Shown here: one piece after another, positions 9,967-63,075 of the stretch
Layout of the letters: each line of letters starts with the position of its first letter
Numbering within the stretch: the stretch's first letter is position 1
Origin: a bacterium
GTDB lineage: Bacteria > Ratteibacteria > UBA8468 > B48-G9 > DTJG01
Direction of reading: 5' to 3'
Assembly: GCA_021800535.1 (NCBI GenBank)
Contig: JAJYYV010000001.1
Location: forward strand, 84,641-148,640
Length of the DNA: 64,000 nucleotides
The notes under the pieces: model-generated
Database searches by the model: none
Told to the model about the DNA's origin: nothing
Seen by the model: only the letters and a program-made list of their open reading frames with translations
Program-made: the position numbers and the translations under genes

Positions 9967-9983
9967 TACAATCCGTATTATAT

Positions 9984-10029
9984 TTTGACAAAATGTATAT
10001 CATTCTGTAAATCCATTTGACAAAATATT
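9984..10029 (+). promoter_or_regulatory. Two TTGACAAAAT direct repeats (promoter -35 or regulator site) upstream of modA
   Basis: The 10-mer ttgacaaaat occurs twice within the fhs-modA intergenic region. Confidence 0.3.
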
Positions 10030-10818: not shown

Positions 10819-10825
10819 TATCTAT

Positions 10826-32193: not shown

Positions 32194-32196
32194 AAA

Positions 32197-37650: not shown

Positions 37651-37651
37651 T

Positions 37652-45024: not shown

Positions 45025-45096
45025 TGCCGGGGGGCAGAATCGAACTGCCCACGCCAGCCTTTTCAGGGCTGCGCTCTACCACTGAGCTACCCCGGC
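45025..45096 (-). tRNA. tRNA-Phe (anticodon GAA)
   Basis: Reverse complement reads GCCGGGGTAGCTCAGTGGTAGAGCGCAGCCCTGAAAAGGCTGGCGTGGGCAGTTCGATTCTGCCCCCCGGCA: 7-bp acceptor stem, D arm GCTC/GAGC, anticodon loop CTGAAAA, T loop TTCGATT; CCA is not encoded. Confidence 0.9.
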
Positions 45097-47892: not shown

Positions 47893-47920
47893 TTGACATA
47901 AAAAAATATAGGGATAAAAT
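47893..47920 (+). promoter_or_regulatory. Candidate promoter for the hydrogenase operon: TTGACA, 16-nt spacer, TAAAAT
   Basis: Hexamers read directly at 47893-47898 and 47915-47920, about 90 nt upstream of the 48004 ATG. Confidence 0.35.
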
Positions 47921-48003
47921 TTAAAATATAATAGGTAAAAAATAAATTTTTTTAATATATAATGTGATTTTATTCACAAAGTTATTAGTTAAAACATAAA
48001 ATA

Positions 48004-49080
48004 ATGGATACATATTTTATTGAAAAGAATATATGGGCTGACTATATAAGAAAAAAAAGTTTGGAAATAAACATATATGCTGCATTTGAAAAATCTGAGC
48101 CTGTATTTTCAAATGAATCTCAATTTATCAGAGCAGATAAAACTCAAAAATCCTCTCTGATGTGGGAAATAGCTAATCCGGATAATATAGACAAAATAAT
48201 TTATGACAGAATGCATCCGGTTGCTCCTTTAAAAATTTTCTTTTTTCCTTTTAAAGAAATAATACTTCCGGAAATAGACAGCATCACGCCATTTTTTATT
48301 ATTGGTGCTACAAACTGTGACCTTCTTGCTCTTGATATAACAGATAAGGTTTTTAAGGATAATAATTATAAAGACCCGTCTTATAGCAGAAGAAGGCAAC
48401 AGGCTACAATTATTTCTATTGATTGCCAAAAACCTGATGAATATTGTTTTTGTGAACTTTGGGGTAACAGAACTTATCCTGAAAAAAACTTTGATTTAAA
48501 CCTTACTTATACTTCTGAAGGTTTTATTGCAGAAATAGGTTCAGAAAAGGGAGTCAGCATAATAAAAGAAATAGATAAAAAGGAAAAGACTTCAGAAGAA
48601 ACGGCATCTCTTAGGGAATCAATAAGAAAACAAACACAAAATATTGTAAAAAATAATAATTCACAATATAAAATATGTGAAATAGGGCACATAAGGAATG
48701 ATGTGCCTTCCTGTCTTGAAAACAAGATTGATTCTCCTGAATGGAAATCTGCTGTTACGGATTGTGTGCAATGTGGAGCATGTAATGCAGCATGTCCTAC
48801 ATGCGTATGTTTTTTACTTGAAGATTTTAGCTCTCAAAAATCTTTTACCAAAGCAAAAATATGGGATTATTGTCTTTATCAGTCTTATGCAAAAATGGCC
48901 TCAGGAGTTTCCCCAAGGCCTCTCTTATGGGAAAGATATGCCAATAGACTGCTTTGTAAATATCAGTATATGGTAAAAAATTTTGGAATAGTTGGTTGTA
49001 CCGGATGTGGAAGATGTATTGCAGGTTGTCCCGGTAAAATAGATAAAAGAAAAATACTACAAGAGGTGGCAAAACAATAA
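48004..49080 (+). CDS. 4Fe-4S dicluster protein of the AsrA / sulfhydrogenase-beta (HydB) type
   Basis: C-terminal CVQCGACNAACPTCVC and CTGCGRCIAGCPG motifs; 358 aa; followed by an AsrB/HydG-like partner. Confidence 0.6.
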   Translation: MDTYFIEKNIWADYIRKKSLEINIYAAFEKSEPVFSNESQFIRADKTQKSSLMWEIANPDNIDKIIYDRMHPVAPLKIFFFPFKEIILPEIDSITPFFIIGATNCDLLALDITDKVFKDNNYKDPSYSRRRQQATIISIDCQKPDEYCFCELWGNRTYPEKNFDLNLTYTSEGFIAEIGSEKGVSIIKEIDKKEKTSEETASLRESIRKQTQNIVKNNNSQYKICEIGHIRNDVPSCLENKIDSPEWKSAVTDCVQCGACNAACPTCVCFLLEDFSSQKSFTKAKIWDYCLYQSYAKMASGVSPRPLLWERYANRLLCKYQYMVKNFGIVGCTGCGRCIAGCPGKIDKRKILQEVAKQ

Positions 49081-49090
49081 TTAATAAAAA

Positions 49091-49924
49091 ATGGAACAAA
49101 ATATATATAAACCAATACAATGTGAAGTAATAGATGTTTTTGAGGAATCTCCTACTATAAAAACTATCAGACTTAAACCTTTGGAGCCATTTTCCTTTTT
49201 GGCCGGACAGTTTATTTCTTTTACTGTTCCTGGCATAGGGGAAGCACCTTTTACCCCTTCATCTTCACCCTTTGAAAAAAATTATATGGAAGTAACTGTT
49301 ATGAAAACCGGTAAAGTGACAGCGGCTATACATCAGATAAAAAAAGCAGATATCGTAGGAATAAGAGGGCCTTATGGCAAACCATATCCTATGGAAAAAT
49401 TTGCTGATAAAAATATTTTACTGGTAGGTGGTGGTGTGGGGCTTGCTCCATTACGGGCTTTATTTTATGCTCTTATTGAAACTCTGGATAATTATAAATC
49501 TATTGTTTTCTGCCTTGGAGCAAGAAGTCCCGTGGATTTTATTTTTAAAAAGGAAGTATTTGAAACCTGGCTTTCAGAATCATGGCTTTCTTCCTATAAA
49601 AAAATTTCATTTCGTATTACAGCGGATAAAAAAGATGAAACATGGAAATATAATGAAGGTGTTGTGACAAAAATATTGGATAATCTTCCTTTTGTTCCGG
49701 AAAATGCTGTGGTATGTGGCCCGCCTGTCATGATGAAATTTACAACCCTGAAATTATTAGATGTGGGATATAAACCAGAAGAAATTTATCTGTCAATGGA
49801 AAGAAAGATGTACTGCGCCATAGGCCAGTGCAGACATTGTCTTCTTGGGGATAAATTTGTTTGTAAGGATGGGCCGGTTTTTACATATGAAGAAATAAAA
49901 AATCAACCGAAAATATGGGCATAA
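49091..49924 (+). CDS. FAD/NAD(P)-binding oxidoreductase with a C-terminal 2Fe-2S cluster (AsrB / HydG / PyrK-like)
   Basis: FNR-like fold with ILLVGGGVGLAPLRA; C-terminal CAIGQCRHC...C cluster. Confidence 0.7.
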   Translation: MEQNIYKPIQCEVIDVFEESPTIKTIRLKPLEPFSFLAGQFISFTVPGIGEAPFTPSSSPFEKNYMEVTVMKTGKVTAAIHQIKKADIVGIRGPYGKPYPMEKFADKNILLVGGGVGLAPLRALFYALIETLDNYKSIVFCLGARSPVDFIFKKEVFETWLSESWLSSYKKISFRITADKKDETWKYNEGVVTKILDNLPFVPENAVVCGPPVMMKFTTLKLLDVGYKPEEIYLSMERKMYCAIGQCRHCLLGDKFVCKDGPVFTYEEIKNQPKIWA

Positions 49925-49933
49925 TATAAATAA

Positions 49934-50425
49934 ATGAAAAAATTATATATAGATTATGAAAAGTGCCAGAGTTGTCCGGTGTGTATTATAGAATGTAGAT
50001 ATCCATATCATCCGGATAATAATGGAATTAAATATCTGCAGGAGCTTATATCATTTGAATTTATATGCAGAAGATGTAAGGACCATCCATGCGTTAATGC
50101 ATGTGTATATAATGCATTGAGAAGAGAAAATGAAATTATAGTCAGAAGCAAAGTTAGGTGTGTGTCATGTAAAAGTTGTGCTATGGCATGCCCTTTTGGA
50201 ACAATATTTTATGATTCTATACCATATATTGTCAGCAATTGCGATTTTTGTATTGAAAACATGGAAAAAGAGCAGATTCCTTTATGCGCTCAGTCCTGTC
50301 CAAAAGGTGCGATAAAGTATGTGGCGGAAGAAGAAATAAAAGATGAGAAATATATTGAAAAATTAGGGCAGCACCTTATTATTAAAACTTTTAACTGGTT
50401 AAAATTTCAGGAGATAAAAAAGTAA
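49934..50425 (+). CDS. Multi-cluster 4Fe-4S ferredoxin (HycB/HyfA-like electron-transfer subunit)
   Basis: Four Cys clusters: CQSCPVCIIEC, CRRCKDHPCVNAC, CVSCKSCAMACP, CDFC...CAQSCP. Confidence 0.75.
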   Translation: MKKLYIDYEKCQSCPVCIIECRYPYHPDNNGIKYLQELISFEFICRRCKDHPCVNACVYNALRRENEIIVRSKVRCVSCKSCAMACPFGTIFYDSIPYIVSNCDFCIENMEKEQIPLCAQSCPKGAIKYVAEEEIKDEKYIEKLGQHLIIKTFNWLKFQEIKK

Positions 50426-50428
50426 AAA

Positions 50429-51334
50429 ATGAATTTGCTGAATATTATTTTATTATTTATTGGCTGGTCTGTTTTTCTTGTTGTAGCCGGGTTATTTGTT
50501 TTAGGTATTGAAAGGAAAATAGCGGCAAGACTGCAATGGAGAGTTGGGCCTCCGATATGGCAAAATTTTACTGATGTGATAAAACTTTCAGGAAAAGAGA
50601 TTCTTATACCTGAAAAAGCGAATAAATTGGTTTTTATTATTGCACCATTTGCTGCATTTTTATCTGCATTGGTTAGCGGAGTTATTATTATATTATCTCT
50701 GCTATATGGAAAAATAATGCCTGGAGACCTTATCCTTCTTATTTATCTTTTAACAGTGCCTTCTTTATGTTTATTTCTTGGAGCAAGTGCTTCAGGTAAT
50801 ATCCTTGCTTCTGTAGGCGCCTCCAGGGAAATAAAATTAGTTCTTGCATATGAATTACCTTTTATTGCTGCTATGATACTTGTTATTTTTAAGTCGGGTT
50901 TTTCAACATCTCTTTATAACATTATAAAAATTCAAAAAGAAACAGGCATTAATTTTTTATCTGTAGCTGGTTTTTTAGGTTTTTTTATTGCTTTTTTGGG
51001 AATTATAGGAAAACTTGGAATAGTGCCCTTTGATATTGCAGAAGCAGAAACAGAAATTGCAGGAGGAGTGCTTGTGGAATATTCCGGCATGCTTCTTGGT
51101 TTTTATAAAATGACAAGAGCTATTTTGTTTATTGTGCTGCCTGTTTTGCTTATGGTATGTTTTCTTGGGGGATTTAATGGCTGGGTTGGTCTTTTAAAAT
51201 ATATTGTGATATTTGTACTATTGGTGCTGATAAAAAATACAAATCCAAGAGTAAGAATAGACCAGGCTCTAAGATTTTACTGGGGGTTTACAACAATAAT
51301 CATATTTATAAGTTTTCTTTTTTTAAGGGTATAG
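50429..51334 (+). CDS. Membrane subunit of group 4 [NiFe] hydrogenase (NuoH/HycD/MbhM-like)
   Basis: Polytopic membrane protein; the ERKIAARLQWRVGP motif is characteristic of NuoH/HycD. Confidence 0.75.
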   Translation: MNLLNIILLFIGWSVFLVVAGLFVLGIERKIAARLQWRVGPPIWQNFTDVIKLSGKEILIPEKANKLVFIIAPFAAFLSALVSGVIIILSLLYGKIMPGDLILLIYLLTVPSLCLFLGASASGNILASVGASREIKLVLAYELPFIAAMILVIFKSGFSTSLYNIIKIQKETGINFLSVAGFLGFFIAFLGIIGKLGIVPFDIAEAETEIAGGVLVEYSGMLLGFYKMTRAILFIVLPVLLMVCFLGGFNGWVGLLKYIVIFVLLVLIKNTNPRVRIDQALRFYWGFTTIIIFISFLFLRV

Positions 51335-51337
51335 AAT

Positions 51338-51757
51338 ATGGATATTAAAACAAAAGCTTTAAAGAAATCTTTATGGGTATTTCATCTTTCTGTAGGTTCG
51401 TGTAATAATTGTGATATAGAAATACTTGACTGTTTAACGCCAAAATTTGATATTGAAAGATTTGGTATGGTTTTAGTGGGAAGTCCAAGGCATGCAGATG
51501 TTCTTCTTGTTACCGGCATTGTCACCAAAAAGAATGTGGAAAGAGTAAAAATACTCTATCAACAGACTGCAAAACCATGTTTTGTTGTAGCCATTGGCAC
51601 ATGTGCCTGCTCGGGTAATATGTTTAGATTTGGATATAATATGGGGGGTCCTTTAAAGAATATTATTCCTGTGGATGTTTTTATACCGGGATGTCCTCCA
51701 ACTCCAGCGGCAATGTTAGCCGGAATAACAAAATTATTAAACAAGGTAAAAGAGTAA
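51338..51757 (+). CDS. [NiFe] hydrogenase small subunit (NuoB/HycG/MbhJ-like)
   Basis: VGSCNNCDIE, GTCACSG and PGCPP are Cys motifs for the proximal 4Fe-4S cluster. Confidence 0.85.
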   Translation: MDIKTKALKKSLWVFHLSVGSCNNCDIEILDCLTPKFDIERFGMVLVGSPRHADVLLVTGIVTKKNVERVKILYQQTAKPCFVVAIGTCACSGNMFRFGYNMGGPLKNIIPVDVFIPGCPPTPAAMLAGITKLLNKVKE

Positions 51758-51759
51758 AT

Positions 51760-52197
51760 ATGGAACTTAAGAATATTTTAATAGAAAAATTAGGAAGTAA
51801 GATAAAGGAATATAAAGAACCTACGAATAGGCGGATTTATATTACAATTGATAAAGATTCATTGGCTGAGTGTGCCAGAATAATTTTTAAGGATATGGAT
51901 GCCAGATATATTGTGGCAAGTGGAGTCCACAATGAGGATAGTTTTGAAGTGCTTTATCATTTTGGTTTTGATAAACAGGGTATAGTAGTCTCTTTAAGGG
52001 TATATTTAGATAAAGATAATCCTGAAATTGAATCTCTGGTCTGGTTAATACCGGGTATTGAATATATAGAAAGAGAAACCTGGGAATTACTTGGAATAAA
52101 ATTTTTAAATAATCCCAATCTTAAACATTTTCTTCTGGCAGAAGACTGGCCGGAAGGTAATTATCCGGTAAGAAAAAATATAAAAGGAAAAAAATGA
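51760..52197 (+). CDS. NuoC-like 30 kDa subunit of the hydrogenase (MbhK-like); start moved from 51691 to 51760
   Basis: NuoC-type fold by composition and position; the ATG at 51760 directly follows the small-subunit stop. Confidence 0.65.
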   Translation: MELKNILIEKLGSKIKEYKEPTNRRIYITIDKDSLAECARIIFKDMDARYIVASGVHNEDSFEVLYHFGFDKQGIVVSLRVYLDKDNPEIESLVWLIPGIEYIERETWELLGIKFLNNPNLKHFLLAEDWPEGNYPVRKNIKGKK

Positions 52198-53381
52198 AAA
52201 AAGTAATTGTTCCCCTGGGACCGTATCATCCTTTGTTTGAAGAGCCGGAATTTTTTGAGCTTTATTGTGATGGAGAAAGGGTTGTAGATGTTGAGTGGCA
52301 TGCAGGCTATAACCATAGAGGAATTGAAAAGATTTCAGAATCAAAACACTGGGACCAGGTAACATTTCTTGTTGAAAGAATTTGTGGTATATGTTCCAAT
52401 TCTCATCCTATGGCTTATTGTAATGCAGTGGAGAATCTCCTGGGGCTTGATATTCCTGAAAGGGCAAAATATATAAGAACAATTATTTCAGAAATGGAGA
52501 GGCTGCATAGTCATTTCTTATGGGTTGGGCTTGCCGGACATTTTCTTGGATATAATACTGTTTTTATGTGGGCATGGAAATATAGAGAACCGCTTCTTGA
52601 TATGTTTGAGGTGATAACAGGCGGGAGAAATAATTATTCTATGATAAAGATTGGCGGGGTCAGAAGAGATATTAATGACCAGCAGATAGAAATGTTAAGG
52701 AAAATGCTGGATGGTATTAGTTCTCAACTTAATATGTTAACCAAAGTATTTTTAGATGACCCTGTTTTACAGGCAAGACTTGTAAATGTAGGTGTTCTGA
52801 CAAAACAGGATGTGAAAAATTATGGAGCCGTAGGACCTGTTGCAAGGGCTTCAGGTGTTGATATTGATATAAGAAGGGATAATCCTTATGCTGCATATAA
52901 TCTTGTTGATTGGAAGGTTATAACAAGAGAAAATGGAGATGTTTTTGATAAGGCTGTTGTACGGCTTCTTGAAGGTTTTGAATCTGTAAAAATTATTAGA
53001 CAATGTCTTGATAGAATAGAACATAAAAAAGGGGAAATTCTTGCTGAGGTAAGGGAAATTCCTGCTGGTGAAGGGATAGGGAGACATGAGGCTTTAAGAG
53101 GAGAAGTATTCCATTATGTCAGAAGTGATGGTTCATCAAGTCCAGTCCGACATAAAATCAGGGCACCCAGCTATGTAAATGTTCCTACATTTAAGAAAAG
53201 TTCTATAGGCCAGACCATTTCAGATGTTGCAATTATTCTTGCCGGAGTTGACCCATGTTATTGTTGTACAGAAAGGGTTGCAATTTATGATGCTAATACT
53301 AAAAAGTCTAGAGATATTACCTGGCCGGAGATTGTTAAAAAAAGCCAGGAAAAAACTGAACAATTGAAAAAACATGGATAA
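52194..53381 (+). CDS. [NiFe] hydrogenase large subunit, group 4 (NuoD/HycE/MbhL-like)
   Basis: N-terminal Ni-binding RICGICSNSHP and C-terminal DPCYCCTERV motifs. Confidence 0.9.
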   Translation: MKKVIVPLGPYHPLFEEPEFFELYCDGERVVDVEWHAGYNHRGIEKISESKHWDQVTFLVERICGICSNSHPMAYCNAVENLLGLDIPERAKYIRTIISEMERLHSHFLWVGLAGHFLGYNTVFMWAWKYREPLLDMFEVITGGRNNYSMIKIGGVRRDINDQQIEMLRKMLDGISSQLNMLTKVFLDDPVLQARLVNVGVLTKQDVKNYGAVGPVARASGVDIDIRRDNPYAAYNLVDWKVITRENGDVFDKAVVRLLEGFESVKIIRQCLDRIEHKKGEILAEVREIPAGEGIGRHEALRGEVFHYVRSDGSSSPVRHKIRAPSYVNVPTFKKSSIGQTISDVAIILAGVDPCYCCTERVAIYDANTKKSRDITWPEIVKKSQEKTEQLKKHG

Positions 53382-55182
53382 TATAATTACATTTTTTATA
53401 GCTGTACCATTTATAGCAGGATTGTTATGTCTTTTTATCAAAAGACCCGCTTTTTACCTAAAAGAAGCTATTTCCCTGCTGATATCTATAGGAATGTTTG
53501 TGTTTGCTATAGGACTTTTTGGATTTAGTCTTGCTATTAAAACATCTGGTTATGCAACTGAACTGTTCTGGATAGATTCTTTAAGTAAGTTTATGTTTCT
53601 TTGTATAACTTTTTTCACCCTGGCTATTATAGTATATAGCATAGGATTTATGAAGAAAGCACCAAAATTAAATCAATTTTATGGCTATATACTTTTAACA
53701 ATGTCTGCAAGTATAGGTGCTGTTTTTTCCAATAATATTATTTTATTTATAGTTTTTTGGGGGTTTCTTGCCATTATGCTTTATCTTCTTATAGGGCTTG
53801 GGGAACATCCGGATACCGCTGAATTTGCCAAAAAGTCTCTTATAATGGTTGGTGGAAGTGATTCCCTGCTTATACTTGGTTCCGTGATTCTAATCTTTTT
53901 AAGTAAAAGTTTCTTTTTTTCAGAAATGAAAATACCTTTATTTTCTACTACAGCCATACTTGGGTTTTTCTGCCTTTTATCTGCAGCATTTGTAAAAGCA
54001 GGGGTGTTTCCAGTACACACATGGATACCTGATATAGCAGAGTCTGCTCCTGTTCCTGCTCTGGCTTTTTTCCCCGCTTCTCTGGATAAACTTCTTGGAA
54101 TATATCTTTTTGCCCGAATATATCTGGATATATTTATGTTTAATCCGGATATTCAGATTATTATTTGTTTTTTTGGTTCTTTAACAATTATTATAGCTGT
54201 GCTAATGGCTCTTAATCAGCATAATATGAAAAAATTACTTTCTTATCATGCAGTAAGCCAGGTGGGATATATGGTTCTTGGGATTGCAAGTGCTACCCCT
54301 ATTGGTATTATAGGCGGACTTTTTCATATGCTAAATAATGCCCTTTATAAAACAGGTCTTTTCTTTGGGGCGGGTTCTGTAGAAAAACAAACAAAAACCG
54401 ACCATATGGATAAATTAGGGGGACTTGCAAAATATATGCCTGTGACATTTTTTTCTTTTTTGTTTGCGGCTCTTGCAATATCAGGGGTTCCTCCTTTTAA
54501 TGGATTTTTTTCTAAATGGTTTATTTATCAGGGTTTAATTACAGAGGCAAAGAACAATCCATCTTTTGTTCTATGGATTGTTGCTGCAATGTTTGGCAGC
54601 GCTTTAACCCTTGCCAGTTTTTTAAAGATAATTCATTCTGTTTTTTTAGGCCATAGCAAACAGGAAAAGGTTAAAGACAGTTCTTTGTGGATGCTTGTTC
54701 CTATGGTTGTAATATCTATAATATGCTTACTATTTGGTGTTTTATGGTGGATTCCGGTAAGAACATTTTTACTTCCTATCATACATACCCGGTTAGGAAT
54801 AATGACAATTTTGGGAGGTATCTCTTTAAATCTTGGCATTATGCTTATAATAATAGCTTTAATTATTGGATTGATTTTATATCTTTTTATGACAGGAAAA
54901 ACTTTTAGAAAGGTTCCTTCTTTTATTGGAGGTGAACAGGTTAATCCTGATATGGAAATGAGTGGAACTGAATTTTATAGAACTATTGAAGAAACAGATT
55001 TTTTTGCTCCGCTATATAGATTTGCCAAAAAGAAGTATTTTGATATCTATGATATAGTCAAAAGTATAATAGAATATTTTGGGAATATTTTGAAAAAAGT
55101 ACAATCAGGTGTTTTAAACACATATATTACCTGGATACTTTTTGGGGTTATTGTTTTATTTTTATTGTTTTTTGGAGTTTGA
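53374..55182 (+). CDS. MrpA/NuoL-like cation/proton antiporter subunit (MbhH-like)
   Basis: 602 aa polytopic; WIPDIAESAPVPALAF is typical of the NuoL/MrpA family. Confidence 0.75.
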   Translation: MDNIITFFIAVPFIAGLLCLFIKRPAFYLKEAISLLISIGMFVFAIGLFGFSLAIKTSGYATELFWIDSLSKFMFLCITFFTLAIIVYSIGFMKKAPKLNQFYGYILLTMSASIGAVFSNNIILFIVFWGFLAIMLYLLIGLGEHPDTAEFAKKSLIMVGGSDSLLILGSVILIFLSKSFFFSEMKIPLFSTTAILGFFCLLSAAFVKAGVFPVHTWIPDIAESAPVPALAFFPASLDKLLGIYLFARIYLDIFMFNPDIQIIICFFGSLTIIIAVLMALNQHNMKKLLSYHAVSQVGYMVLGIASATPIGIIGGLFHMLNNALYKTGLFFGAGSVEKQTKTDHMDKLGGLAKYMPVTFFSFLFAALAISGVPPFNGFFSKWFIYQGLITEAKNNPSFVLWIVAAMFGSALTLASFLKIIHSVFLGHSKQEKVKDSSLWMLVPMVVISIICLLFGVLWWIPVRTFLLPIIHTRLGIMTILGGISLNLGIMLIIIALIIGLILYLFMTGKTFRKVPSFIGGEQVNPDMEMSGTEFYRTIEETDFFAPLYRFAKKKYFDIYDIVKSIIEYFGNILKKVQSGVLNTYITWILFGVIVLFLLFFGV

Positions 55183-55183
55183 T

Positions 55184-55726
55184 ATGATAAGTATAACAAT
55201 AGAGATTTTTTTGATTTTTATGCTGATAGGAGCATTGATAGCTGTAGAAATAACAGACCTGTTATATTCTGTTATTTCAATCGGTGCAATAGGATTTTTT
55301 TCAAGTATAGGATTTTTATTGCTGGGAGCGCCTGATATAGCAATAATCCAGATGGTTGTTGAAACTCTGTCTTTAATTATACTTGTAAGGGCAACTATAA
55401 GAAAAGATATACATACCATTTCCGGAGATAGAGAGTTTTTTGGGCTTCTTTCAACTGTTGCAATACTTTTTTTCTTCTTTTTGTATATATTTAAAGCTAC
55501 ACAAACATATCCTGTTTTTGGTAATCCTGTAATGTCAAGAATTTCAGATTCTGCATCCAATATATATCTTGCTAAAGGATTAAAACAAACAGGAAGTCCG
55601 GATATTGTAAGTGCTATAGTTTTTAATTATAGATTTTTAGATGTTCTTGGAGCAAATGCTGTGATTTTTGCGGCATTTCTTGGCGCCCTTGCAATACTAA
55701 GACAAAAAGCAAAAAAGAAACAATAA
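55184..55726 (+). CDS. MrpB N-terminal-domain-like membrane subunit (MbhD-like); start moved to 55184
   Basis: Small hydrophobic protein; the ATG follows the upstream stop; matches the Mrp-module position. Confidence 0.5.
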   Translation: MISITIEIFLIFMLIGALIAVEITDLLYSVISIGAIGFFSSIGFLLLGAPDIAIIQMVVETLSLIILVRATIRKDIHTISGDREFFGLLSTVAILFFFFLYIFKATQTYPVFGNPVMSRISDSASNIYLAKGLKQTGSPDIVSAIVFNYRFLDVLGANAVIFAAFLGALAILRQKAKKKQ

Positions 55727-55727
55727 A

Positions 55728-56219
55728 ATGGAAAAAGAAAATAAAAAAGCAGGAATGAGCAATATTGTAAAAGTTGTTGCTTCCTGGCAACGAACATTTA
55801 TTTTTATGTTTGGATTATATCTTATTGCCTATGGACAGATAACTATAGGTGGAGGTTTTGCAGGAGGAATTATTATTGCGGGTACATTTATCCTTACTAC
55901 TCTTGCGTTTGGTAAAGAAATTGCATTGGGTAAGCTTGGAAGATTACTTGCTTTTAGATTGGCATCAATTGGTGGGATATTTTTAATACTGACAGCCGTT
56001 ATAAATAATAATTTTAGATTTACACATGTTCTTGTTGAAACCCCTTCAGGAAATTTTGCATTATTTAGTGCTGGTTTTATTCCTATTTATAATTTGGGGC
56101 TTGGTATTATCATCGGGGCTTCATTTTTTATGATTTTTATTATTCTTTCAATGCATAGAATTATAAATATTAATGGAACAAAAAAACTTATAATAACAAA
56201 GAAGTGGGGGCAAAAATGA
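55728..56219 (+). CDS. MrpB C-terminal-domain-like membrane subunit (MbhE-like)
   Basis: 163 aa hydrophobic; position within the Mrp module. Confidence 0.45.
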   Translation: MEKENKKAGMSNIVKVVASWQRTFIFMFGLYLIAYGQITIGGGFAGGIIIAGTFILTTLAFGKEIALGKLGRLLAFRLASIGGIFLILTAVINNNFRFTHVLVETPSGNFALFSAGFIPIYNLGLGIIIGASFFMIFIILSMHRIININGTKKLIITKKWGQK

Positions 56220-56563
56220 TATATGCATTAGCTATCACAGTTTTTATGGTGGGTTTATATGCTGTATGCTGTAAAAAAAATATAATAAAAATTATTCAGG
56301 GGGTAATAATTATGGAATATGCCCTGAATTTTTTTATAATACTTCTTGGTTATAGAAAAGGCGGTATTGCTCCAATTATAAATAAAATAACAGATATGCA
56401 TACCTTTGCTGCACAATCTGTGGACCCTTTACCTCAGGCTATAGTTTTTATATCTATTTTGATAGGGCTTGGCCTTCTTGCTTTGATGGTGGCTCTTGCT
56501 ATAAGGCTTTATGAAAGGTATGGGACCTTTGATATAACTGAAATGAAAAAATTAAAAGGATAA
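56204..56563 (+). CDS. MrpC/NuoK-like subunit
   Basis: 119 aa, three TM helices; NuoK-like. Confidence 0.55.
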   Translation: MGAKMIYALAITVFMVGLYAVCCKKNIIKIIQGVIIMEYALNFFIILLGYRKGGIAPIINKITDMHTFAAQSVDPLPQAIVFISILIGLGLLALMVALAIRLYERYGTFDITEMKKLKG

Positions 56564-56566
56564 AAA

Positions 56567-58060
56567 ATGATAAATCCATTTGTTTTTATTGCTTTGCCGA
56601 TGGGTATGGCATTTTTGATAGCATTGATTGGCCATCAGTATAAAAAATCACCTGATTTTTTGGCTAATCTTACTATGGGAATATTATTTATTTTATCTGC
56701 TATATGTTATGGAAAATCTACAATTTACTATATAGGAAACTGGTCTCCTTCTATTGGAATTCCACTTGTTTTAGATGGTTTGAGCGGGCTTATGCTGATT
56801 ATTATAAATTTTATTGGTTTTATGTCAGCAATATTTTCAATACAATATATAGAAAAATTTTATACATCAAAGCTAAGATACTATGGACTGTTTTTATTAA
56901 CAATTGCAGGATTAAATGGAATAGTTTTAAGCGGAGATATTTTTTCTATATATGTATTCCTGGAATTAGCATCAATTTCTTCCTATGCTCTTGTGGGATT
57001 TGGTTGTGGGGCAGAAGAATTAGAAGCGGCTTTTAAGTACCTTATTATGGGAACAATAGCATCATTCTTTATTCTTTTGGGAATAGCGCTTCTTTATGGA
57101 GCAACGGGAAACCTTAATCTTGCAGCAATAGCAAATGTGGTTCAATCTCAGGGATTTAGCGACCCAATCAAAATTGCTTTTATTTTCCTTATCTCTGGTT
57201 TCTTTATTAAAGCAGCTTCCATCCCATTTCATTCATGGCTTCCTGATGCTCATTCCTCTGCGCCATCTTCTATTTCGGCAATTCTTTCTGGTATTGTTGT
57301 AAAAATCACAGGTATATACTGTATTATCCGGCTTGTATATAATGTATTTGGTGCAACTGTTCTTATCTCTCATATTTTGTTATATATAGGGCTTATATCT
57401 ATAATACTTGCTGGAATTATGGCGTTTATGCAGACAAATATAAAAAGAACCTTTGCATATTCCACAATAAGCCAGCTGGGTTATGTATTTTTTGCTCTTG
57501 GTATTGGTACTCCTCTTGCTATATTTGGAGCTATGTTTCAGTTGTTTAATCATGCAATATTTAAGCCCCTGCTTTTTCTTAATTCCGGCTCTGTGGATTA
57601 TCAGACAGGAGAAAAAGTCATTAATAAAATGGGTAAATTGAATGAGAAAATGCCTGTCACATCAACCTCTACCTTAATTGGTTCTTTATCAATCTCCGGG
57701 ATTCCTCCTTTTAATGGATTCTGGAGTAAGTTAATTATAATAATAGCAGCTGTGCAGGCAAATCTTATTGGTCCTGCAATATGGGCAATAATTGGAAGTA
57801 TATTAACTCTTTCATATTATTCCAAAGTATTGAAATGTTGTTTTTTTGGTAAGGGAGCCCAGTTTAATGAAGAAAAATGGAAATCGTTTAGAGAGGTGCC
57901 TGGTTTAATGCTTATACCTGTGATAACACTTGCTTTTATGTGTATTATTGGCGGAATATTTATTATTCATGGATATAATGGGTTTTTTGGTAGGCCGGTA
58001 AAGGATATTATTAATGGTCCTTTATGGTATATTCAATCTGTATTTGGGAGTTATAAATGA
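56567..58060 (+). CDS. MrpD/NuoM-like antiporter subunit
   Basis: 497 aa; WLPDAHSSAPSSISAILSG matches the NuoM/MrpD consensus. Confidence 0.75.
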   Translation: MINPFVFIALPMGMAFLIALIGHQYKKSPDFLANLTMGILFILSAICYGKSTIYYIGNWSPSIGIPLVLDGLSGLMLIIINFIGFMSAIFSIQYIEKFYTSKLRYYGLFLLTIAGLNGIVLSGDIFSIYVFLELASISSYALVGFGCGAEELEAAFKYLIMGTIASFFILLGIALLYGATGNLNLAAIANVVQSQGFSDPIKIAFIFLISGFFIKAASIPFHSWLPDAHSSAPSSISAILSGIVVKITGIYCIIRLVYNVFGATVLISHILLYIGLISIILAGIMAFMQTNIKRTFAYSTISQLGYVFFALGIGTPLAIFGAMFQLFNHAIFKPLLFLNSGSVDYQTGEKVINKMGKLNEKMPVTSTSTLIGSLSISGIPPFNGFWSKLIIIIAAVQANLIGPAIWAIIGSILTLSYYSKVLKCCFFGKGAQFNEEKWKSFREVPGLMLIPVITLAFMCIIGGIFIIHGYNGFFGRPVKDIINGPLWYIQSVFGSYK

Positions 58061-58557
58061 GAAGACTTATTCTTGGATGTATGGCATTTATTATGTGGCT
58101 GATGTTAACCTGGCCATTTAATTCTTCTGTTGGTTATCAAGGAATTTTTATTGGAATTATTGCATCTTGTTTTGTTGCAATATTTTTCGGAGATTATATT
58201 CCTGGAATATCTGAAAAGTTCCTTGAACCGCAGAGGTGGTTGTGGGCTATATATTATATATTTGTATTTTTATGGTATTGTTTTCTGGGTAACTTAGATG
58301 TAGCTTATAGAGTTCTTCATCCTGATATGCCTATTAAACCAGGTATTGTTAAGGTAAGAACAAAATTAAACAATCTGATTGGACTTACAATTCTTGCAAA
58401 TTCTATCACTCTTACACCAGGAACAACAACAATTGAAGCCACTGATGATGGATATCTTTATGTACACTGGATAAATGTGAAAACCCAGGATGAACAAGAG
58501 GCTACAGAGATAATAGTAAAAAAATTTGAAGAAATTCTTGAGAGGATTTTTGAATGA
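58057..58557 (+). CDS. MrpE-like subunit
   Basis: 166 aa; Mrp operon order. Confidence 0.5.
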   Translation: MRRLILGCMAFIMWLMLTWPFNSSVGYQGIFIGIIASCFVAIFFGDYIPGISEKFLEPQRWLWAIYYIFVFLWYCFLGNLDVAYRVLHPDMPIKPGIVKVRTKLNNLIGLTILANSITLTPGTTTIEATDDGYLYVHWINVKTQDEQEATEIIVKKFEEILERIFE

Positions 58558-58811
58558 TTATATTTGGTTTTATAATTCTGATTATATGTTCAGCTTTATG
58601 TTTATATAGAATAGGAAGAGGCCCAACAGCTTCAGATAGGTCTGTGGCAATTGATATTTTGGGTATTATTGTTGTTGCTTTTTGTGTCCTTTTGTATTTT
58701 AAAACCGGGGATGGGTTTTATTTAATAGTTGCAATAGCATGGGCATTATTAAGTTTTATTGGAGCTCTTGCCCTTGCAAAATTTCTTGAGGATAAAGGTT
58801 TTGATGAATAA
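58554..58811 (+). CDS. MrpF-like subunit
   Basis: 85 aa, three TM helices; follows MrpE. Confidence 0.5.
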   Translation: MIIFGFIILIICSALCLYRIGRGPTASDRSVAIDILGIIVVAFCVLLYFKTGDGFYLIVAIAWALLSFIGALALAKFLEDKGFDE

Positions 58812-58836
58812 AACAAATTATAAGGGGGTTGTATAA

Positions 58837-59181
58837 ATGAAAGAAACAATATCACATATTTTTTTATTTATAGGGCTTTTATTTGATCTTCTTGGGTGTA
58901 TAGGATTGGTAAGATTTCCGGATGTTTATCTTAGACTTATGGCAGCAACAAAAAGTGTTACCCTTGGCACAGGGCTAATACTTCTTAGTGTTGTTATTGC
59001 AGGCAGTGCTCCTGTGGCGGCAAAAGCTGTTTTAGTTTTACTTTTTATTTCTGTAACATCTCCTACGGCGGCACACGCTCTTGCCAGGGCTTCCAGTGTT
59101 TCCGATATAAAAATGTGGGAAGGAACAGTTTGTGATAAATTTACAGAAGACAGGAAAAGGAAAACAAATGAAAAAACCTAA
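58837..59181 (+). CDS. MrpG (MnhG)-like subunit
   Basis: LGCIGLVRFPDVYLRLMAATK matches the MnhG signature. Confidence 0.65.
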   Translation: MKETISHIFLFIGLLFDLLGCIGLVRFPDVYLRLMAATKSVTLGTGLILLSVVIAGSAPVAAKAVLVLLFISVTSPTAAHALARASSVSDIKMWEGTVCDKFTEDRKRKTNEKT

Positions 59182-59791
59182 ACTAAGAGAACTTAATGAA
59201 GCGATAAAAAGTCTTTTTTCAAGGCCGCATACAACAAGGTTTCCCAGAGAACCTTTAAACATGCCTGAAGGGTTCCGCGGCAAACCCCAGTTTTATGAAG
59301 ATGGTTGTGTTGGTTGTGGTGCCTGTGCCCAGGTATGTCCTGCAAAAGCAATTGAGGTGGAAGAAAATTTGGACCCTGCCAATCCAACAAGAAATCTGAC
59401 GCATATTCCTGCGTACTGTATAAACTGCCAGGAATGTGAAAGAAATTGTATAACAGGCCAGGGAATAAAACTAACAAAACAGTTTGATGTTTCTTATTTT
59501 TCAGAAGAAGAGGTTAATCATTCTATCCAGCACCAGCTTGTTCTTTGCAGTCATTGCGGTTCTGTTATTGGGACTAAAAAACATATACTCTGGGTAATAA
59601 ACCGGGTGGGTTCTTTATCCTTTGCACAGGCAAACTATATTGAGTTTATTCAGAAATCTTTGAAAATACAAGCAATTATTCCGGAAAAACAGAACAAAGA
59701 AGAAAAAATTGAAAGAGAGGAAATTTTCAATCTTATCTGTCCAAAATGCAGACGCGCTGTTTACCTTGAGGATGAAAAAATTCACTTCTAA
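59168..59791 (+). CDS. NuoI/HycF/MbhN-like 2x[4Fe-4S] subunit with a C-terminal Cys-pair extension; start moved to 59168
   Basis: CVGCGACAQVCP and CINCQECERNC; extra CSHCGS...CPKCRR pairs. Confidence 0.7.
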   Translation: MKKPKLRELNEAIKSLFSRPHTTRFPREPLNMPEGFRGKPQFYEDGCVGCGACAQVCPAKAIEVEENLDPANPTRNLTHIPAYCINCQECERNCITGQGIKLTKQFDVSYFSEEEVNHSIQHQLVLCSHCGSVIGTKKHILWVINRVGSLSFAQANYIEFIQKSLKIQAIIPEKQNKEEKIEREEIFNLICPKCRRAVYLEDEKIHF

Positions 59792-59821: not shown

Positions 59822-60085
59822 ATGCACGAACTATCCATAGCGCAGTACTTATTTGATTTTTGTAAAACAATAGAACAGCAATATAAACCAAAGGAAATTA
59901 CAAAAATAAATCTTTCTGTTAATCCTTTAAGCTGTCTTAATGAAGATATTTTAGGGTTTTTGTTAAAAAATATTGCAGAATCAGAAAAAAATATCGCACT
60001 ACAAAATGTGAAGATACATATAGAGAAAAATAATTCTCCTGATAGCAGAGAGATTACAGTGAAAGATATAGAAATAGAGGAGTGA
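59822..60085 (+). CDS. hypA: HypA-like hydrogenase nickel-insertion protein lacking the CxxC...CxxC zinc site
   Basis: Starts MHELSIAQ as HypA does; only 87 aa and without the two CxxC pairs. Confidence 0.55.
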   Translation: MHELSIAQYLFDFCKTIEQQYKPKEITKINLSVNPLSCLNEDILGFLLKNIAESEKNIALQNVKIHIEKNNSPDSREITVKDIEIEE

Positions 60086-60750
60086 AAATGCCTGTAAAAG
60101 TATTACAAATTAATGAGAATATTCTTGCAGAAAATGATAAAATATCTGAAGAAATTACCAGGATATTAAAAAATTATAATATTATATCTTTTAATTTAAT
60201 GGGAGGTCCGGGAGCAGGAAAAACAAAGGTTCTTGAGCAAATTATATCTCATGTTAATAAACAATTTCCATGTGCAGTTATTGAAGGGGATGTGGCTGGA
60301 AGTTTTGATAGTGAAAGACTAAAGAAATTTGATATACCCATAGTACAGATAAATACAGGTGGAGGTTGTCATCTTGAAGCATTTATGGTTAAAAAGGGCA
60401 TAGAGCAGATACCACTTGAAAAAATAAAAATCCTTTTTGTTGAAAATGTTGGCAACTTAATATGCCCGGCTGAATTTAAGATTGGAATTGAAAAAAATAT
60501 TGTTATAAGTTCCACTACAGAAGGAGAAGACAAACCAGCAAAAAATCCCCTGATGTTTAAAGTTTCACAATTATGTATACTGAATAAAATAGACCTTTTA
60601 GACCCTGAAACATTTAATGATGAAAAATTTACTTCTTATATAAAGGATATAAACCCTTCATTGGAAATTATTAAATTTTCTGCAAAAACAGGACAGAATA
60701 TAGATAAAGTTATAACCAGATTATTCAATTTATATAACAATTCTTTTTAA
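60082..60750 (+). CDS. hypB: Hydrogenase nickel-incorporation GTPase HypB
   Basis: Walker A GGPGAGKT; ENVGNLICP; 222 aa. Confidence 0.85.
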   Translation: MKMPVKVLQINENILAENDKISEEITRILKNYNIISFNLMGGPGAGKTKVLEQIISHVNKQFPCAVIEGDVAGSFDSERLKKFDIPIVQINTGGGCHLEAFMVKKGIEQIPLEKIKILFVENVGNLICPAEFKIGIEKNIVISSTTEGEDKPAKNPLMFKVSQLCILNKIDLLDPETFNDEKFTSYIKDINPSLEIIKFSAKTGQNIDKVITRLFNLYNNSF

Positions 60751-60786: not shown

Positions 60787-63075
60787 GTGGAAAAAGCTTA
60801 TAGATTAACAATTGAAGGACAGGTTCAGGGGATAGGATTTAGACCATATATATATAGACTTGCCCAAAAATATTTTATTAAGGGATATGTCTTAAATAGC
60901 AAAAAAGGTGTAATTGTTGAAATACAGGGTAAAGAAAAAAATGTAGATAAATTTTTAGCCCATTTACACAAAAATCCTCCTGCTCTTTCTTATATTATAT
61001 CTTTTAAAATAAAACAAATACCATGTAAAAATTTTTCTAATTTTGAAATAAAAAAAAGTCAGGATATAGAAAAAGGATTTATTTTCCCTCCAGCAGATAT
61101 ATCTATCTGTCCAGATTGTCTTAAAGAAATATTTGATAAAACCAGCAGAAGATATCTTTATCCCTTTACAAACTGTACGCAATGCGGTCCTAGATTTTCA
61201 ATAGTGCAGAAACTTCCTTATGATAGACAAAATACAACAATGAGTAAATTTAAAATGTGTCCTGTCTGTGAAAAGGAATATAACCTTGTTTTAGATAGAA
61301 GATATCATGCACAGCCAAACTGTTGTCCTGTATGCGGACCTCAGGTTCAGATGTATACTTTGCCTGAAGGTGCAATATGCCAGGGGAAAGAAGCGCTTTG
61401 TTCTGCTATTAAACTTCTTGAGAAGGGAGAAATAGTTGCCATAAAGGGTATTGGTGGTTTTCATATATGTTGCGATGCTACAAATAAAAAGGCTGTTTCT
61501 TTATTAAGAAGATGGAAAAGGGGGTCAAATAAACCTTTTGCTGTTATGGTAAAAGATATCAAAACAGCAGAAAATATTGTGTATCTAACTAACCCGGATA
61601 AGAAAATTTTGTCAGGGATTGAAAATCCTATACTTATTGTACCTAAAAAAAATAACAGGTTTTTAAGTAAAGAAATAGCTCCTGAAAACAATTATCTTGG
61701 TATAATGCTTGCTTATACAGGACTTCATCATATTTTACTTTCAAAAAGAGTAAAAATTATTATTGCAACAAGTGGTAATATAAAAGAAGAACCAATAATT
61801 ACAGACAATATAGAATCTATAAAAAAACTCAACACTTTGACAAAATATTTTTTAATACATAATAGAGACATTTATCAAAGAGAAGATGATACTGTAATTA
61901 GTAAAACACTTTATGGGTATTTGATGATAAGAAGAAGCAGGGGATATGTGCCCTTTCCTTTTCAGACTTCAGGGGCCATGAATAAAATTTTAGCTGCAGG
62001 TTCTGACTTAAAAAATACCTTTGCTTTAAGCGATAAAAAAGGAATTTTTCTTTCCCAATATATCGGAGACCTTGAAAATAAAGAAACCTTTGAGTTTTAT
62101 AAAAATACTATCAGACATTTTATACAGTTTCTGGAGATAAAACCTGAAGTCATTGCCTGCGACCTTCATCCGCAATATTTTTCAACACAATATGCACAGA
62201 CTTTTTCAAAAGAAGAAAAGGTCTCTTTAGTTAAAATACAACATCATCATGCACATTTAGTTTCATGTATGGCAGATAATAATCTTAAAAATGAACCAGT
62301 AATTGGGGTATGTTTTGATGGGACAGGTTATACAGCAGATGGAACAATATGGGGAGGAGAATTTTTAATAGGAAATTATGATTATTTTGAAAGAAAAGGG
62401 TCTTTTTTACAGTTTGTAATACCAGGTGGAGAAACCGCTATAAAACAGGTATGGAAAACAGGAATTTCTCTTTTGTATAACACTTTTGGTGAAAATATAC
62501 CGGATGTACCATTTATACATAATATAAATAGCAAGGATATAAATACAACAATAAGGATTATTGAAAAAAATATCAATAGTCCTGTTTCCTCTTCTGCGGG
62601 TAGAATCTTTGATGGTATAAGTGCAATCCTTGGAATAAAAAAAGATATCAGTTTTGAAGGAGAAGCCGCAATATTTTTGCAGATGAGAAGTGAAAAAGCA
62701 TCGGAAAAATTAAAATATGAGATGGAATTAACAGAAAACAAAGGACTTCTTGTTCTTGATTATAGAGCCATGATTAAAAAGATTATCAAAGATATAAAAA
62801 ATAAAAAACAAATAGAGGATATTGGATTGGGTTTTCATTTGGCACTTGCAAAAGGAATCAAAAATGTTGTTGAACAAATAAGAAATCAAACCGGAATAAA
62901 AAAAGTCTGTTTTTCCGGGGGCGTATTTCAAAATAATCTGTTAGTAAAATGTATAATTAAAGAATTTAGAATCTCAACATTTACCCTGTATTTTCATAAA
63001 AATTTCCCAGCAAATGATGGGGGAATATCTTTAGGACAGATAATAATAGCAAACAATATAAAAGATATATATTAA
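60787..63075 (+). CDS. hypF: Carbamoyltransferase HypF
   Basis: N-terminal acylphosphatase domain; two CxxC...CxxC zinc fingers (CPDC...CTQCGPRF; CPVCE...CPVCGPQ); YrdC-like and Kae1-like domains; 762 aa. Confidence 0.9.
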   Translation: MEKAYRLTIEGQVQGIGFRPYIYRLAQKYFIKGYVLNSKKGVIVEIQGKEKNVDKFLAHLHKNPPALSYIISFKIKQIPCKNFSNFEIKKSQDIEKGFIFPPADISICPDCLKEIFDKTSRRYLYPFTNCTQCGPRFSIVQKLPYDRQNTTMSKFKMCPVCEKEYNLVLDRRYHAQPNCCPVCGPQVQMYTLPEGAICQGKEALCSAIKLLEKGEIVAIKGIGGFHICCDATNKKAVSLLRRWKRGSNKPFAVMVKDIKTAENIVYLTNPDKKILSGIENPILIVPKKNNRFLSKEIAPENNYLGIMLAYTGLHHILLSKRVKIIIATSGNIKEEPIITDNIESIKKLNTLTKYFLIHNRDIYQREDDTVISKTLYGYLMIRRSRGYVPFPFQTSGAMNKILAAGSDLKNTFALSDKKGIFLSQYIGDLENKETFEFYKNTIRHFIQFLEIKPEVIACDLHPQYFSTQYAQTFSKEEKVSLVKIQHHHAHLVSCMADNNLKNEPVIGVCFDGTGYTADGTIWGGEFLIGNYDYFERKGSFLQFVIPGGETAIKQVWKTGISLLYNTFGENIPDVPFIHNINSKDINTTIRIIEKNINSPVSSSAGRIFDGISAILGIKKDISFEGEAAIFLQMRSEKASEKLKYEMELTENKGLLVLDYRAMIKKIIKDIKNKKQIEDIGLGFHLALAKGIKNVVEQIRNQTGIKKVCFSGGVFQNNLLVKCIIKEFRISTFTLYFHKNFPANDGGISLGQIIIANNIKDIY

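Follow-up and report, generated by a model that had tools for sequence, protein, structure and literature searches.

A group 4 [NiFe] hydrogenase operon of a Ratteibacteria genome combines a full Mrp module with sulfhydrogenase-type NAD(P)H module genes and a predicted Rex operator

Which electron donor would serve a membrane-bound hydrogenase whose operon opens with genes for a soluble, NAD(P)H-type protein pair? The question is raised by an operon of a Ratteibacteria genome (assembly GCA_021800535.1), located in a 64,000-nt stretch of contig JAJYYV010000001.1 (positions 84,641 to 148,640, forward strand), which was analyzed as a whole and is hereafter called the window. Between positions 48004 and 59791 of the window, the + strand carries 16 consecutive and tightly packed open reading frames (ORFs), g1 to g16, or 19 if the hyp genes that follow are counted. 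A first-pass annotation of the letters alone had described a 15-gene operon for a group 4 [NiFe] hydrogenase with a full Mrp module, headed by an AsrA/HydB-like and AsrB/HydG-like pair and a HycB-like ferredoxin, and had suggested a link either to pyridine nucleotides or, through the HycB-like protein, to formate. Gene content was assigned by Pfam and NCBIfam profile searches and by comparison with chains of the PDB (lengths in amino acids, aa):

48004..49080, +: g1, Fe-S protein resembling the beta subunit of sulfhydrogenase I (SHI), HydB and AsrA, 358 aa (Pfam Fer4_22 3e-26; NCBIfam HydB 4e-43, ShyB 6e-41; PDB 9nez_B 4e-41)
49091..49924, +: g2, SHI-gamma/HydG/AsrB-like flavoprotein with FAD, NAD(P)H and [2Fe-2S] sites, 277 aa (Pfam FAD_binding_6, NAD_binding_1, DHODB_Fe-S_bind; PDB 9nez_C 3e-51)
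49934..50425, +: g3, HycB/CooF/HydN-type polyferredoxin with four [4Fe-4S] motifs, 163 aa (Pfam Fer4_11 6e-13; PDB 7qv7, HycB4/HycB3 of HDCR, and 7z0s_B 2e-11)
50429..51334, +: g4, NuoH/HycD/MbhM-like membrane anchor (Pfam NADHdh 6e-60)
51338..51757, +: g5, NuoB-like hydrogenase small subunit with CNNC, GTCACSG and GCPP (Pfam Oxidored_q6 6e-31; NCBIfam NF005012 142.5 bits, above the cut-off of 116)
51760..52197, +: g6, NuoC-like (Pfam Complex1_30kDa 2.5e-24); the ORF opens at 51691, the likely start is the ATG at 51760, and orthologues have 140-146 aa
52194..53381, +: g7, group 4 [NiFe] large subunit, 395 aa (Pfam Complex1_49kDa, NiFeSe_Hases; MbhL 6cfw_L 6e-89, HycE 7z0s_E 3e-84)
53374..55182, +: g8, MrpA/NuoL-like antiporter-like subunit with a C-terminal extension, 602 aa, NuoL-like over residues 64-599 (Pfam Proton_antipo_M 9e-52)
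55184..55726, +: g9, MbhD/MbhE-like, equivalent to the C-terminal domain of MrpA (Pfam MbhD 3e-13; orthologues also match MbhE); likely start 55184
55728..56219, +: g10, MnhB/MrpB-like (Pfam MnhB 4e-13)
56204..56563, +: g11, MrpC/NuoK-like (Pfam Oxidored_q2 6e-21)
56567..58060, +: g12, MrpD/MbhH-like antiporter-like subunit, 497 aa (Pfam Proton_antipo_M 1e-70)
58057..58557, +: g13, MrpE-like (Pfam MNHE 6e-41)
58554..58811, +: g14, MrpF-like (Pfam MrpF_PhaF 2e-14)
58837..59181, +: g15, MrpG-like (Pfam PhaG_MnhG_YufB 1.5e-23)
59168..59791, +: g16, HycF/NuoI-like subunit with 2x[4Fe-4S] and a CxxC...CxxC C-terminal extension (NCBIfam NF009053 8e-28); the ORF opens at the GTG at 59132, likely start 59168

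The ORFs lie where the first-pass annotation had placed them and on the same strand, and their domains agree with its list, including the opening pair (g1 with its HydB, ShyB and AsrA matches, g2 with its HydG, ShyC and AsrB matches), the four-cluster ferredoxin (g3), the group 4 core and the complete Mrp module (g4-g16). Two details had to be corrected: there are 16 genes and not 15, and g9, labelled “MrpB(N)” there, is the MbhD-like counterpart of the C-terminal part of MrpA, the MnhB/MrpB-like gene being g10. Successive genes of the operon lie 1-25 nt apart or overlap by 4-14 nt. A transcript boundary between the opening pair and the remainder of the operon finds no support at 49924/49934, where the gap between g2 and g3 measures 9 nt and holds no terminator, and in related loci the pair always accompanies a membrane hydrogenase. 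Terminator-like matches found inside genes by a scan of the window were weak.

By its predicted products, the operon is that of a genuine membrane-bound, Mrp-linked group 4 [NiFe] hydrogenase with built-in NAD(P)H-type module genes. The NuoD-like large subunit g7 carries both Ni-Fe CxxC motifs (RxCGxCxxxH ... DPCxxCxxR, here RICGICSNSH and DPCYCCTER), and its Ni-binding C64, C67, C355 and C358 are invariant in 13 homologues. It matches MbhL and HycE about equally, and a 33-aa tail follows DPCYCCTER, as in HycE. NuoB-, NuoC-, NuoH- and NuoI-like partners are encoded together with it (g5, g6, g4 and g16), and g16 is nearer to HycF of the E. coli formate hydrogenlyase (FHL; 7z0s_F, 1e-15) than to MbhN (6cfw_N, 2e-12). 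MrpA- to MrpG-like genes (g8-g15) complete the set and keep the charged residues of antiporters: the Lys of transmembrane helices (TM) 7, 8 and 12 are invariant in both g8 and g12. The TM5 Glu is kept in g12, but g8 has Gly at this position (FWGF, residues ~128-131), a substitution shared by the window copy and two distant orthologues.

The sole strong PDB match of g1 and g2 is to the beta and gamma subunits of P. furiosus SHI. Every Cys of SHI beta is conserved in g1, and the 16 Cys of g1, invariant among orthologues, all align with SHI beta Cys (9nez_B alignment). In g2, the RGPYG and GGxGxAP motifs of gamma and its four C-terminal [2Fe-2S] Cys are conserved, and GGGxGxAP, GPP-MM, RGPxG, TPSS and the four C-terminal Cys are invariant among orthologues. 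All g2 orthologues also share a basic residue followed by Ser, Thr or Asn directly before the conserved Pro of the NAD-binding domain; we take this motif to lie at the end of strand beta-2 of the FNR fold and, as in the NADPH-using gamma subunit of SHI, to be a weak hint of NADPH use. The translation of g3 contains 16 Cys arranged in four cluster motifs. Scores of the pair stay far below the NCBIfam equivalog cut-offs, both for the HydB (147.7 vs 750), ShyB (140.5 vs 690), HydG (182.2 vs 650) and ShyC (180.5 vs 600) families and for AsrAB (TIGR02910/TIGR02911; g1 104.3 vs 323 and g2 196.5 vs 288.6). The beta and gamma subunits of SHI perform NADPH oxidation, according to work cited in PMC13582414.

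The constancy of this arrangement among relatives was followed by tblastn of the window proteins against 86 loci (L001-L086), of which 65 reach far enough upstream and 46 far enough downstream to be compared. The beta/gamma/HycB trio heads the operon in all 65, its genes lying about 4.1, 3.1 and 2.3 kb upstream of that for the large subunit, and MrpE/F/G with the NuoI-like gene lie downstream in 45 of the 46. Locus titles span at least seven phylum-level lineages, and the gene order of the window operon is shared by loci of Ratteibacteria, Cloacimonadota, Bacteroidales, Desantisbacteria, Clostridia and Margulisiibacteriota. From locus to locus, identity to the window copy tracks that of the large subunit as closely for the input genes (r = 0.88 for beta, 0.93 for gamma and 0.88 for HycB) as for core subunits (0.86 for NuoH and 0.91 for NuoI). 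Because of this strict synteny and of the parallel identities, the beta/gamma pair is best seen as an old and integral part of the operon and not as a chance neighbour. The closest large subunits (86-89% identity) belong to metagenome-assembled genomes (MAGs) of Candidatus Omnitrophica, and thousands of further homologues at 63-78% identity come from Ratteibacteria, Cloacimonadota, Bacteroidales, Rikenellaceae, Lentimicrobiaceae, Desantisbacteria, Clostridia and Margulisiibacteriota; a scan of one genome per GTDB species returned at least 600 matching stretches. No cultured carrier appears among the best 120 large-subunit matches, the best 80 GTDB loci or the best 120 beta-like matches (obtained with a Bacteroidales seed), which are all from MAGs or metagenomes.

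The region upstream of g1 connects the operon with redox regulation through two elements:

47893..47920, +: sigma-70-like candidate promoter TTGACA-16-TAAAAT, 11/12 positions matching, in the 150-nt gap after the AdoHcy hydrolase gene
47963..47978, no strand assigned: Rex-type operator palindrome TGTGATTTTATTCACA (TGTGA-N6-TCACA), 26 nt upstream of the g1 ATG

The promoter announced by the first-pass annotation at 47.9 kb corresponds to the best + strand match, but in this AT-rich DNA (~32% G+C) promoter-like sites are as numerous in shuffled sequences, and the site is retained as a candidate only. The palindrome stands out more clearly: TGTGA-N6-TCACA has one match in the 64 kb for 0.05 expected, and the regions upstream of the first gene, in the window and related loci together, contain 43 exact core sites in 26.5 kb against an expectation of 0.39, derived from 21 exact matches in the remaining 1.42 Mb. 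A rex gene scoring above NCBIfam cut-offs directly adjoins the operon in 36 loci, divergently in 31 Bacteroidales loci and co-directionally in Desantisbacteria, Clostridia and Margulisiibacteriota; none lies within the 64-kb window. Rex is a sensor of the NADH/NAD+ ratio and leaves DNA when this ratio is high. The operon is thus probably derepressed by Rex at high NADH/NAD+ through the predicted operator, and since Rex releases DNA under these conditions, it would be on when reducing equivalents accumulate, which fits the role of an H2-evolving redox valve. Flanking bases widen the operator to a T-rich tTTGTGAwnnnnTTCACAw, in agreement with the consensus that PMC6391272 quotes for Rex from Ravcheev et al. 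2012, TTGTGAANNNNTTCACAA.

Taken with the conserved ligands, the synteny in 65/65 loci and the co-divergence, the operator and the rex genes adjoining 36 loci favour the pyridine-nucleotide link of the first-pass annotation by evidence that is entirely comparative. We lean slightly towards an FHL-like machine that would have an NAD(P)H dehydrogenase of sulfhydrogenase beta/gamma type in the place of formate dehydrogenase and would couple the interconversion of NAD(P)H and H2 to ion translocation. The assembly of one complex, its electron path, the nucleotide used, the direction and the ion coupling are what we infer from the sequences, as follows. NAD(P)H would deliver a hydride to the FAD of the gamma-like g2; single electrons would then pass from its [2Fe-2S] cluster to the clusters of the beta-like g1, from there to the four clusters of the HycB-like g3, and on through the HycF/NuoI-like g16 and the proximal cluster of the NuoB-like g5 to the Ni-Fe site in g7, where protons would be reduced to H2. 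Turnover at the NuoB/NuoD/NuoH interface would be coupled to H+ or Na+ movement via both antiporter-like subunits and the remaining parts of the Mrp module. Such a reaction is near equilibrium and should be reversible. By our own calculation from standard potentials, electrons of NAD(P)H (-320 mV; with a reduced NADPH pool, about -370 mV) would move uphill to H2 at 1 bar (-414 mV); at 1-10 Pa H2 (-266 to -296 mV), as in syntrophic habitats, about 13-19 kJ per mol would become available, or about one ion pumped. At high H2, NAD(P)H could be disposed of only at the expense of the ion gradient, unless the enzyme worked in reverse, as an H2:NAD(P)+ reductase. A precedent for the input side is the proposal of an SHI-beta/gamma module as the NADPH site in group 4b clusters (PMC13582414). 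More tentatively, and at somewhat below an even chance in our estimation, the widespread “group 4g” enzyme may as a whole be an ion-translocating NAD(P)H:proton oxidoreductase, an H2-evolving counterpart of complex I with a nucleotide module of separate origin from NuoEFG, switched on by Rex at NADH build-up.

Several points weigh against NAD(P)H coupling. The reduction of protons by NAD(P)H is endergonic at standard conditions, and outward pumping would be limited to low H2. The NuoI-like or HycB-like subunits could accept electrons from ferredoxin, which published annotations of close homologues take as the donor (PMC8542988). Since the targets repressed by Rex include the Ech hydrogenase of C. 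bescii, which depends on ferredoxin (PMC6391272), Rex control is no proof that NADH is a substrate. TGTGA-N6-TCACA is moreover the core of CRP/FNR-type sites too, and the motif in the gamma-like protein hints at NADPH, while Rex senses NADH.

Part of these points meet in the reading of the enzyme as a ferredoxin-dependent, proton-reducing pump of the Mbh type, with the beta-, gamma- and HycB-like proteins as a side arm serving as a ferredoxin:NAD(P)+ oxidoreductase or a redox overflow, which we regard as unlikely but far from negligible. The large subunit is closest to MbhL (6e-89), and the NuoI-like subunit of Mbh takes its electrons directly from ferredoxin. The homologue of Ca. Stygibacter australis, encoded in an identical operon, was classed as HydDB 4g and read as ferredoxin-coupled (PMC8542988), in line with the listing of 4g as “putative ferredoxin-coupled” (PMC5037454), and the Rex control of Ech can be counted on the same side. 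The authors of these ferredoxin annotations do not mention the beta/gamma genes, and a mere accessory would not be expected to stand first in 65/65 loci and to co-diverge with the core; furthermore g16 is more HycF-like than MbhN-like, and HycF is fed by a HycB-bound partner and not by free ferredoxin. Ferredoxin could also act jointly with the nucleotide, in a confurcating or bifurcating enzyme where NAD(P)H and reduced ferredoxin would together reduce protons, or H2 would reduce both, the membrane module fine-tuning the energetics. Such a scheme was proposed for related group 4b clusters with SHI-beta/gamma and a third, formate dehydrogenase (Fdh)-like arm (PMC13582414), and one related locus (L081) carries a truncated molybdopterin protein between its gamma-like and HycB-like genes. 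Confurcation or bifurcation would also remove the thermodynamic problem of making H2 from NAD(P)H. The third arm is however absent from the window operon and from most relatives, SHI itself is non-bifurcating, and the sole flavin is the FAD of a PyrK/NfnA-type subunit, which is not known to be the bifurcating site of enzymes such as NfnAB. We consider this scheme improbable.

Two explanations remain. That g1-g3 would merely share a transcript with the hydrogenase and form an independent soluble enzyme, such as a sulfur, polysulfide or sulfite reductase-like protein or an NAD(P)H:polyferredoxin reductase, is suggested by the presence of AsrA and AsrB among the best family matches and by JGI pipelines, which label beta-like orthologues (P0130, P0152, P0155 and others) “sulfhydrogenase subunit beta (sulfur reductase)”. 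It is nonetheless very doubtful in view of the scores, far under the equivalog cut-offs for AsrA/AsrB, HydB/HydG and ShyB/ShyC, and of the strict synteny and co-divergence with the membrane core; in addition, neither an AsrC-like gene, nor another catalytic partner, nor a group 3b alpha/delta pair was found in the operon of the window or of any related locus, where adjoining hydrogenase genes are all of group 4. For AsrC and group 3b alpha/delta genes, this negative extends to the whole window and the full loci. The weakest explanation, which we find barely credible, is a formate hydrogenlyase in which the HycB-like g3 would dock the FdhA whose gene lies 44 kb upstream. The operon does encode subunits of HycB-like and HycF-like kind, and the distant fdhA pointed out by the first-pass annotation is genuine (3726-6431; TIGR01591 827 bits vs a cut-off of 666). 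Yet this 901-aa FdhA has its own N-terminal NuoG-like 2Fe-2S/4Fe-4S domain ahead of the molybdopterin part, and its neighbours mobA, moeA, formate-tetrahydrofolate ligase and an ABC transporter fit a soluble enzyme of the Wood-Ljungdahl type and not FdhF. As no fdhF-type gene occurs in the operon of any locus either, the formate link once proposed for the HycB-like protein is not supported.

The preferred wiring, from NAD(P)H through a HycB-type connector to a membrane hydrogenase, can be set against known systems. In the E. coli FHL (HycBCDEFG with FdhF; 7Z0S, HydDB 4a), a soluble oxidizing module likewise delivers electrons through HycB-type and HycF-type subunits to a NuoB/NuoD-type hydrogenase on a NuoH-type anchor, and the Fdh-Mfh-Mnh and carbon monoxide dehydrogenase (CODH)-Mch-Mnh complexes of Thermococcus onnurineus (HydDB 4b) share this wiring and add an Mrp module, as in the window operon. 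The connectors of this type are present here as g3 (HycB-type) and g16 (HycF-type), but no catalytic subunit of FdhF type or of CODH is encoded in the operon or in the related loci, L081 alone having a truncated molybdopterin protein; the input here is an NAD(P)H flavoprotein pair instead of a molybdopterin formate dehydrogenase or CODH. Moreover the NuoC-like and NuoD-like parts, fused in HycE of FHL, are encoded here by two genes. The Mbh of P. furiosus (6CFW; HydDB 4d) is the closest solved structure for the large subunit and has MrpE/F/G-, MbhD/E-, MrpB-, MrpC- and MrpD-like subunits in common with the operon. Mbh consists of 14 subunits, only one of them antiporter-like; it lacks HycB-like and flavoprotein subunits and accepts electrons at MbhN from free ferredoxin. 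The window operon differs from the MbhA-N composition by its two antiporter-like subunits (g8, g12) and by g1-g3. With P. furiosus SHI (9NEZ/9NF0; group 3b), the resemblance is confined to the homology of g1 and g2 to beta and gamma, with their Cys ligands and flavin and nucleotide motifs kept, and the partner here is a membrane-bound group 4 hydrogenase, in contrast to the soluble group 3b alpha/delta partner of SHI.

The architecture is not new, contrary to what the first-pass annotation implied: it is already known from genome surveys, and the window operon is a further case. An “enigmatic” group 4 hydrogenase of Saganbacteria (RX5A) was reported with Mrp-like subunits, cooF, asrA, asrB and an unclassifiable molybdopterin protein, and was found most related to sequences of Zixibacteria and Omnitrophica (Matheus Carnevali et al. 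2019, PMC6349859). A “Mbh-Mrp-oxidoreductase type” was then described in Elusimicrobia lineages VII-IX, where its function was called unknown (Méheust et al. 2020, 10.1101/765248), and a 2026 survey, which connected group 4b clusters with homologues of SHI beta/gamma, proposed that they couple to NADPH and bifurcate (PMC13582414). The Mbh-Mrp-oxidoreductase clusters resemble the window operon in gathering the core, the Mrp subunits, a CooF/HycB-like ferredoxin and an AsrA/AsrB-like pair in one cluster. The Saganbacteria and group 4b examples differ by an extra unclassifiable or catalytically dead Fdh-like subunit, missing from the window operon and from most relatives and found in L081 alone. 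Williams et al. 2021 (PMC8542988) assigned Mrp-linked hydrogenases of Cloacimonadota and Omnitrophota (Ca. Stygibacter, Ca. Saelkia and Ca. Gorgyraea) to HydDB 4g and to ferredoxin dependence, without mention of the beta/gamma genes. The large subunit of Ca. Stygibacter australis (P0081) is 67% identical to g7 and belongs to an operon of the same 16 genes in the same order, and by its likeness to P0081 the window enzyme is a putative member of 4g. HydDB 4g is itself a loosely clustered class of undetermined role (PMC5037454) and is polyphyletic (PMC13582414). The present analysis adds that the synteny is both broad and strict, that the input module has diverged in step with the core, and that the ligands are all conserved; it also adds the connection with Rex and the observation that the simpler form without an Fdh-like arm is the majority form.

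The function of this operon is a testable question of some weight for anaerobic bioenergetics. If NAD(P)H coupling is true, a hydrogenase class present in at least 600 GTDB species-level stretches would need re-annotation from “putative ferredoxin-coupled, undetermined role”, and the way in which H2 production and redox balance are modelled for digesters, lakes and anoxic sediments would have to be revised. Uncultured fermenters and syntrophs (Omnitrophota, Cloacimonadota, Bacteroidales and others) could then conserve energy from NAD(P)H oxidation at low H2, and the same organisms could spend their ion gradient to shed NAD(P)H at high H2. It would also mean that a second, independent pyridine-nucleotide module was grafted onto an Mrp/complex-I-type pump, which bears on the evolution of complex I. 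Whatever the coupling, surveys that count sulfhydrogenase from beta/gamma-type genes (ShyC in PMC9324843) may over-count sulfur-reducing potential, because automatic pipelines give the sulfhydrogenase label to subunits of this operon.

Among the related loci, some variants of the operon were noticed. In the closest relative, an Omnitrophica MAG (L001, GCA_023484085.1, 5793-12098) with an 86% identical large subunit, the Mrp block is lost, as also in L002; L001 keeps beta, gamma, HycB, NuoH/B/C/D, NuoI and hypA, the NuoI-like gene and hypA directly following NuoD, and a further cluster for a group 4 hydrogenase immediately precedes the operon. With the window copy, NuoH of L001 shares only 64% identity, vs 81-86% for NuoB and NuoD. 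In L011, L016 and L017, the NuoI-like gene comes directly after NuoD and the Mrp genes follow. The molybdopterin protein of L081, a Margulisiibacteriota MAG, is a truncated oxidoreductase of 498 aa (5516-7012) with Fe4S4 and Molybdopterin domains and without Molydop_binding; a TPR protein (7493-8182) lies between HycB and NuoH in the same locus, which represents the three-armed variant treated in PMC6349859 and PMC13582414. A 151-aa gene lies between the gamma-like and HycB-like genes in 15 Bacteroidales loci (L046, at 7209-7664, L040, L042, L045, L055, L062-L064, L066-L070, L079 and L080) and resembles a cyclic-nucleotide-binding effector domain without DNA-binding domain, its NCBIfam matches being weak and far below cut-off. 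The HycB-like protein of L046 (7677-8168), the one Bacteroidales copy that was read, has neither the first CxxCxxCxxxC motif nor a complete fourth one and probably binds two clusters, not four as predicted for the window copy. In L010, a Ratteibacteria MAG, a 2.5-kb insertion between NuoB and NuoC (7034-9562) encodes a split N-acetylmuramoyl-L-alanine amidase and a PD40 beta-propeller protein; this insertion may truly interrupt the operon, or may be an artefact of assembly or insertion.

Three maturation genes follow g16 in the window:

59822-60085, +: hypA, short form of 87 aa (Pfam HypA), 30 nt after g16
60082-60750, +: hypB (Pfam cobW/HypB), overlapping hypA by 4 nt
60787-63075, +: hypF (HypF domains in Pfam), 36 nt after hypB

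They probably belong to the same transcription unit as g1-g16, their spacing leaving no room for a terminator; hycI, hypC, hypD and hypE are absent from the 64-kb window. The window HypA keeps the N-terminal MHE nickel motif without the C-terminal CxxC...CxxC zinc site, and HypA is likewise short (89 aa) in Omnitrophica L001, while that of Cloacimonadota L003 has 114 aa and the zinc site.

Elsewhere in the window, the cluster at 3726-11638 that begins with fdhA also contains mobA-like and moeA genes, a formate-tetrahydrofolate ligase gene and genes for a molybdate/tungstate-type ABC solute-binding protein and permease, a set that would fit the initial steps of the Wood-Ljungdahl methyl branch. 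The start of this branch was reported together with a 4g Mrp-linked hydrogenase in the Omnitrophota genus Ca. Gorgyraea (PMC8542988). On the minus strand, dnaN (38631-39728) and dnaA (39846-41132) adjoin secA, whose ORF, read from its first start codon, has 1306 aa and overlaps a tRNA gene (45025-45096, minus), the one RNA returned by an Rfam scan of the window. The true start of secA is expected further in because of this overlap; even so, SecA would be unusually long, with a large gap between the P-loop and the wing/scaffold domains. Next to dnaN, type IV secretion-like parts and a secretin are mixed in one cluster (30675-38323): besides several ORFs that have no Pfam match, it encodes a TrbI/VirB10-like protein, an 802-aa TraC/VirB4-like ATPase and the secretin, of 541 aa. 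Finally, a single ORF at 12920-13915 combines a RhuM-family virulence domain with a Fic/DOC domain.

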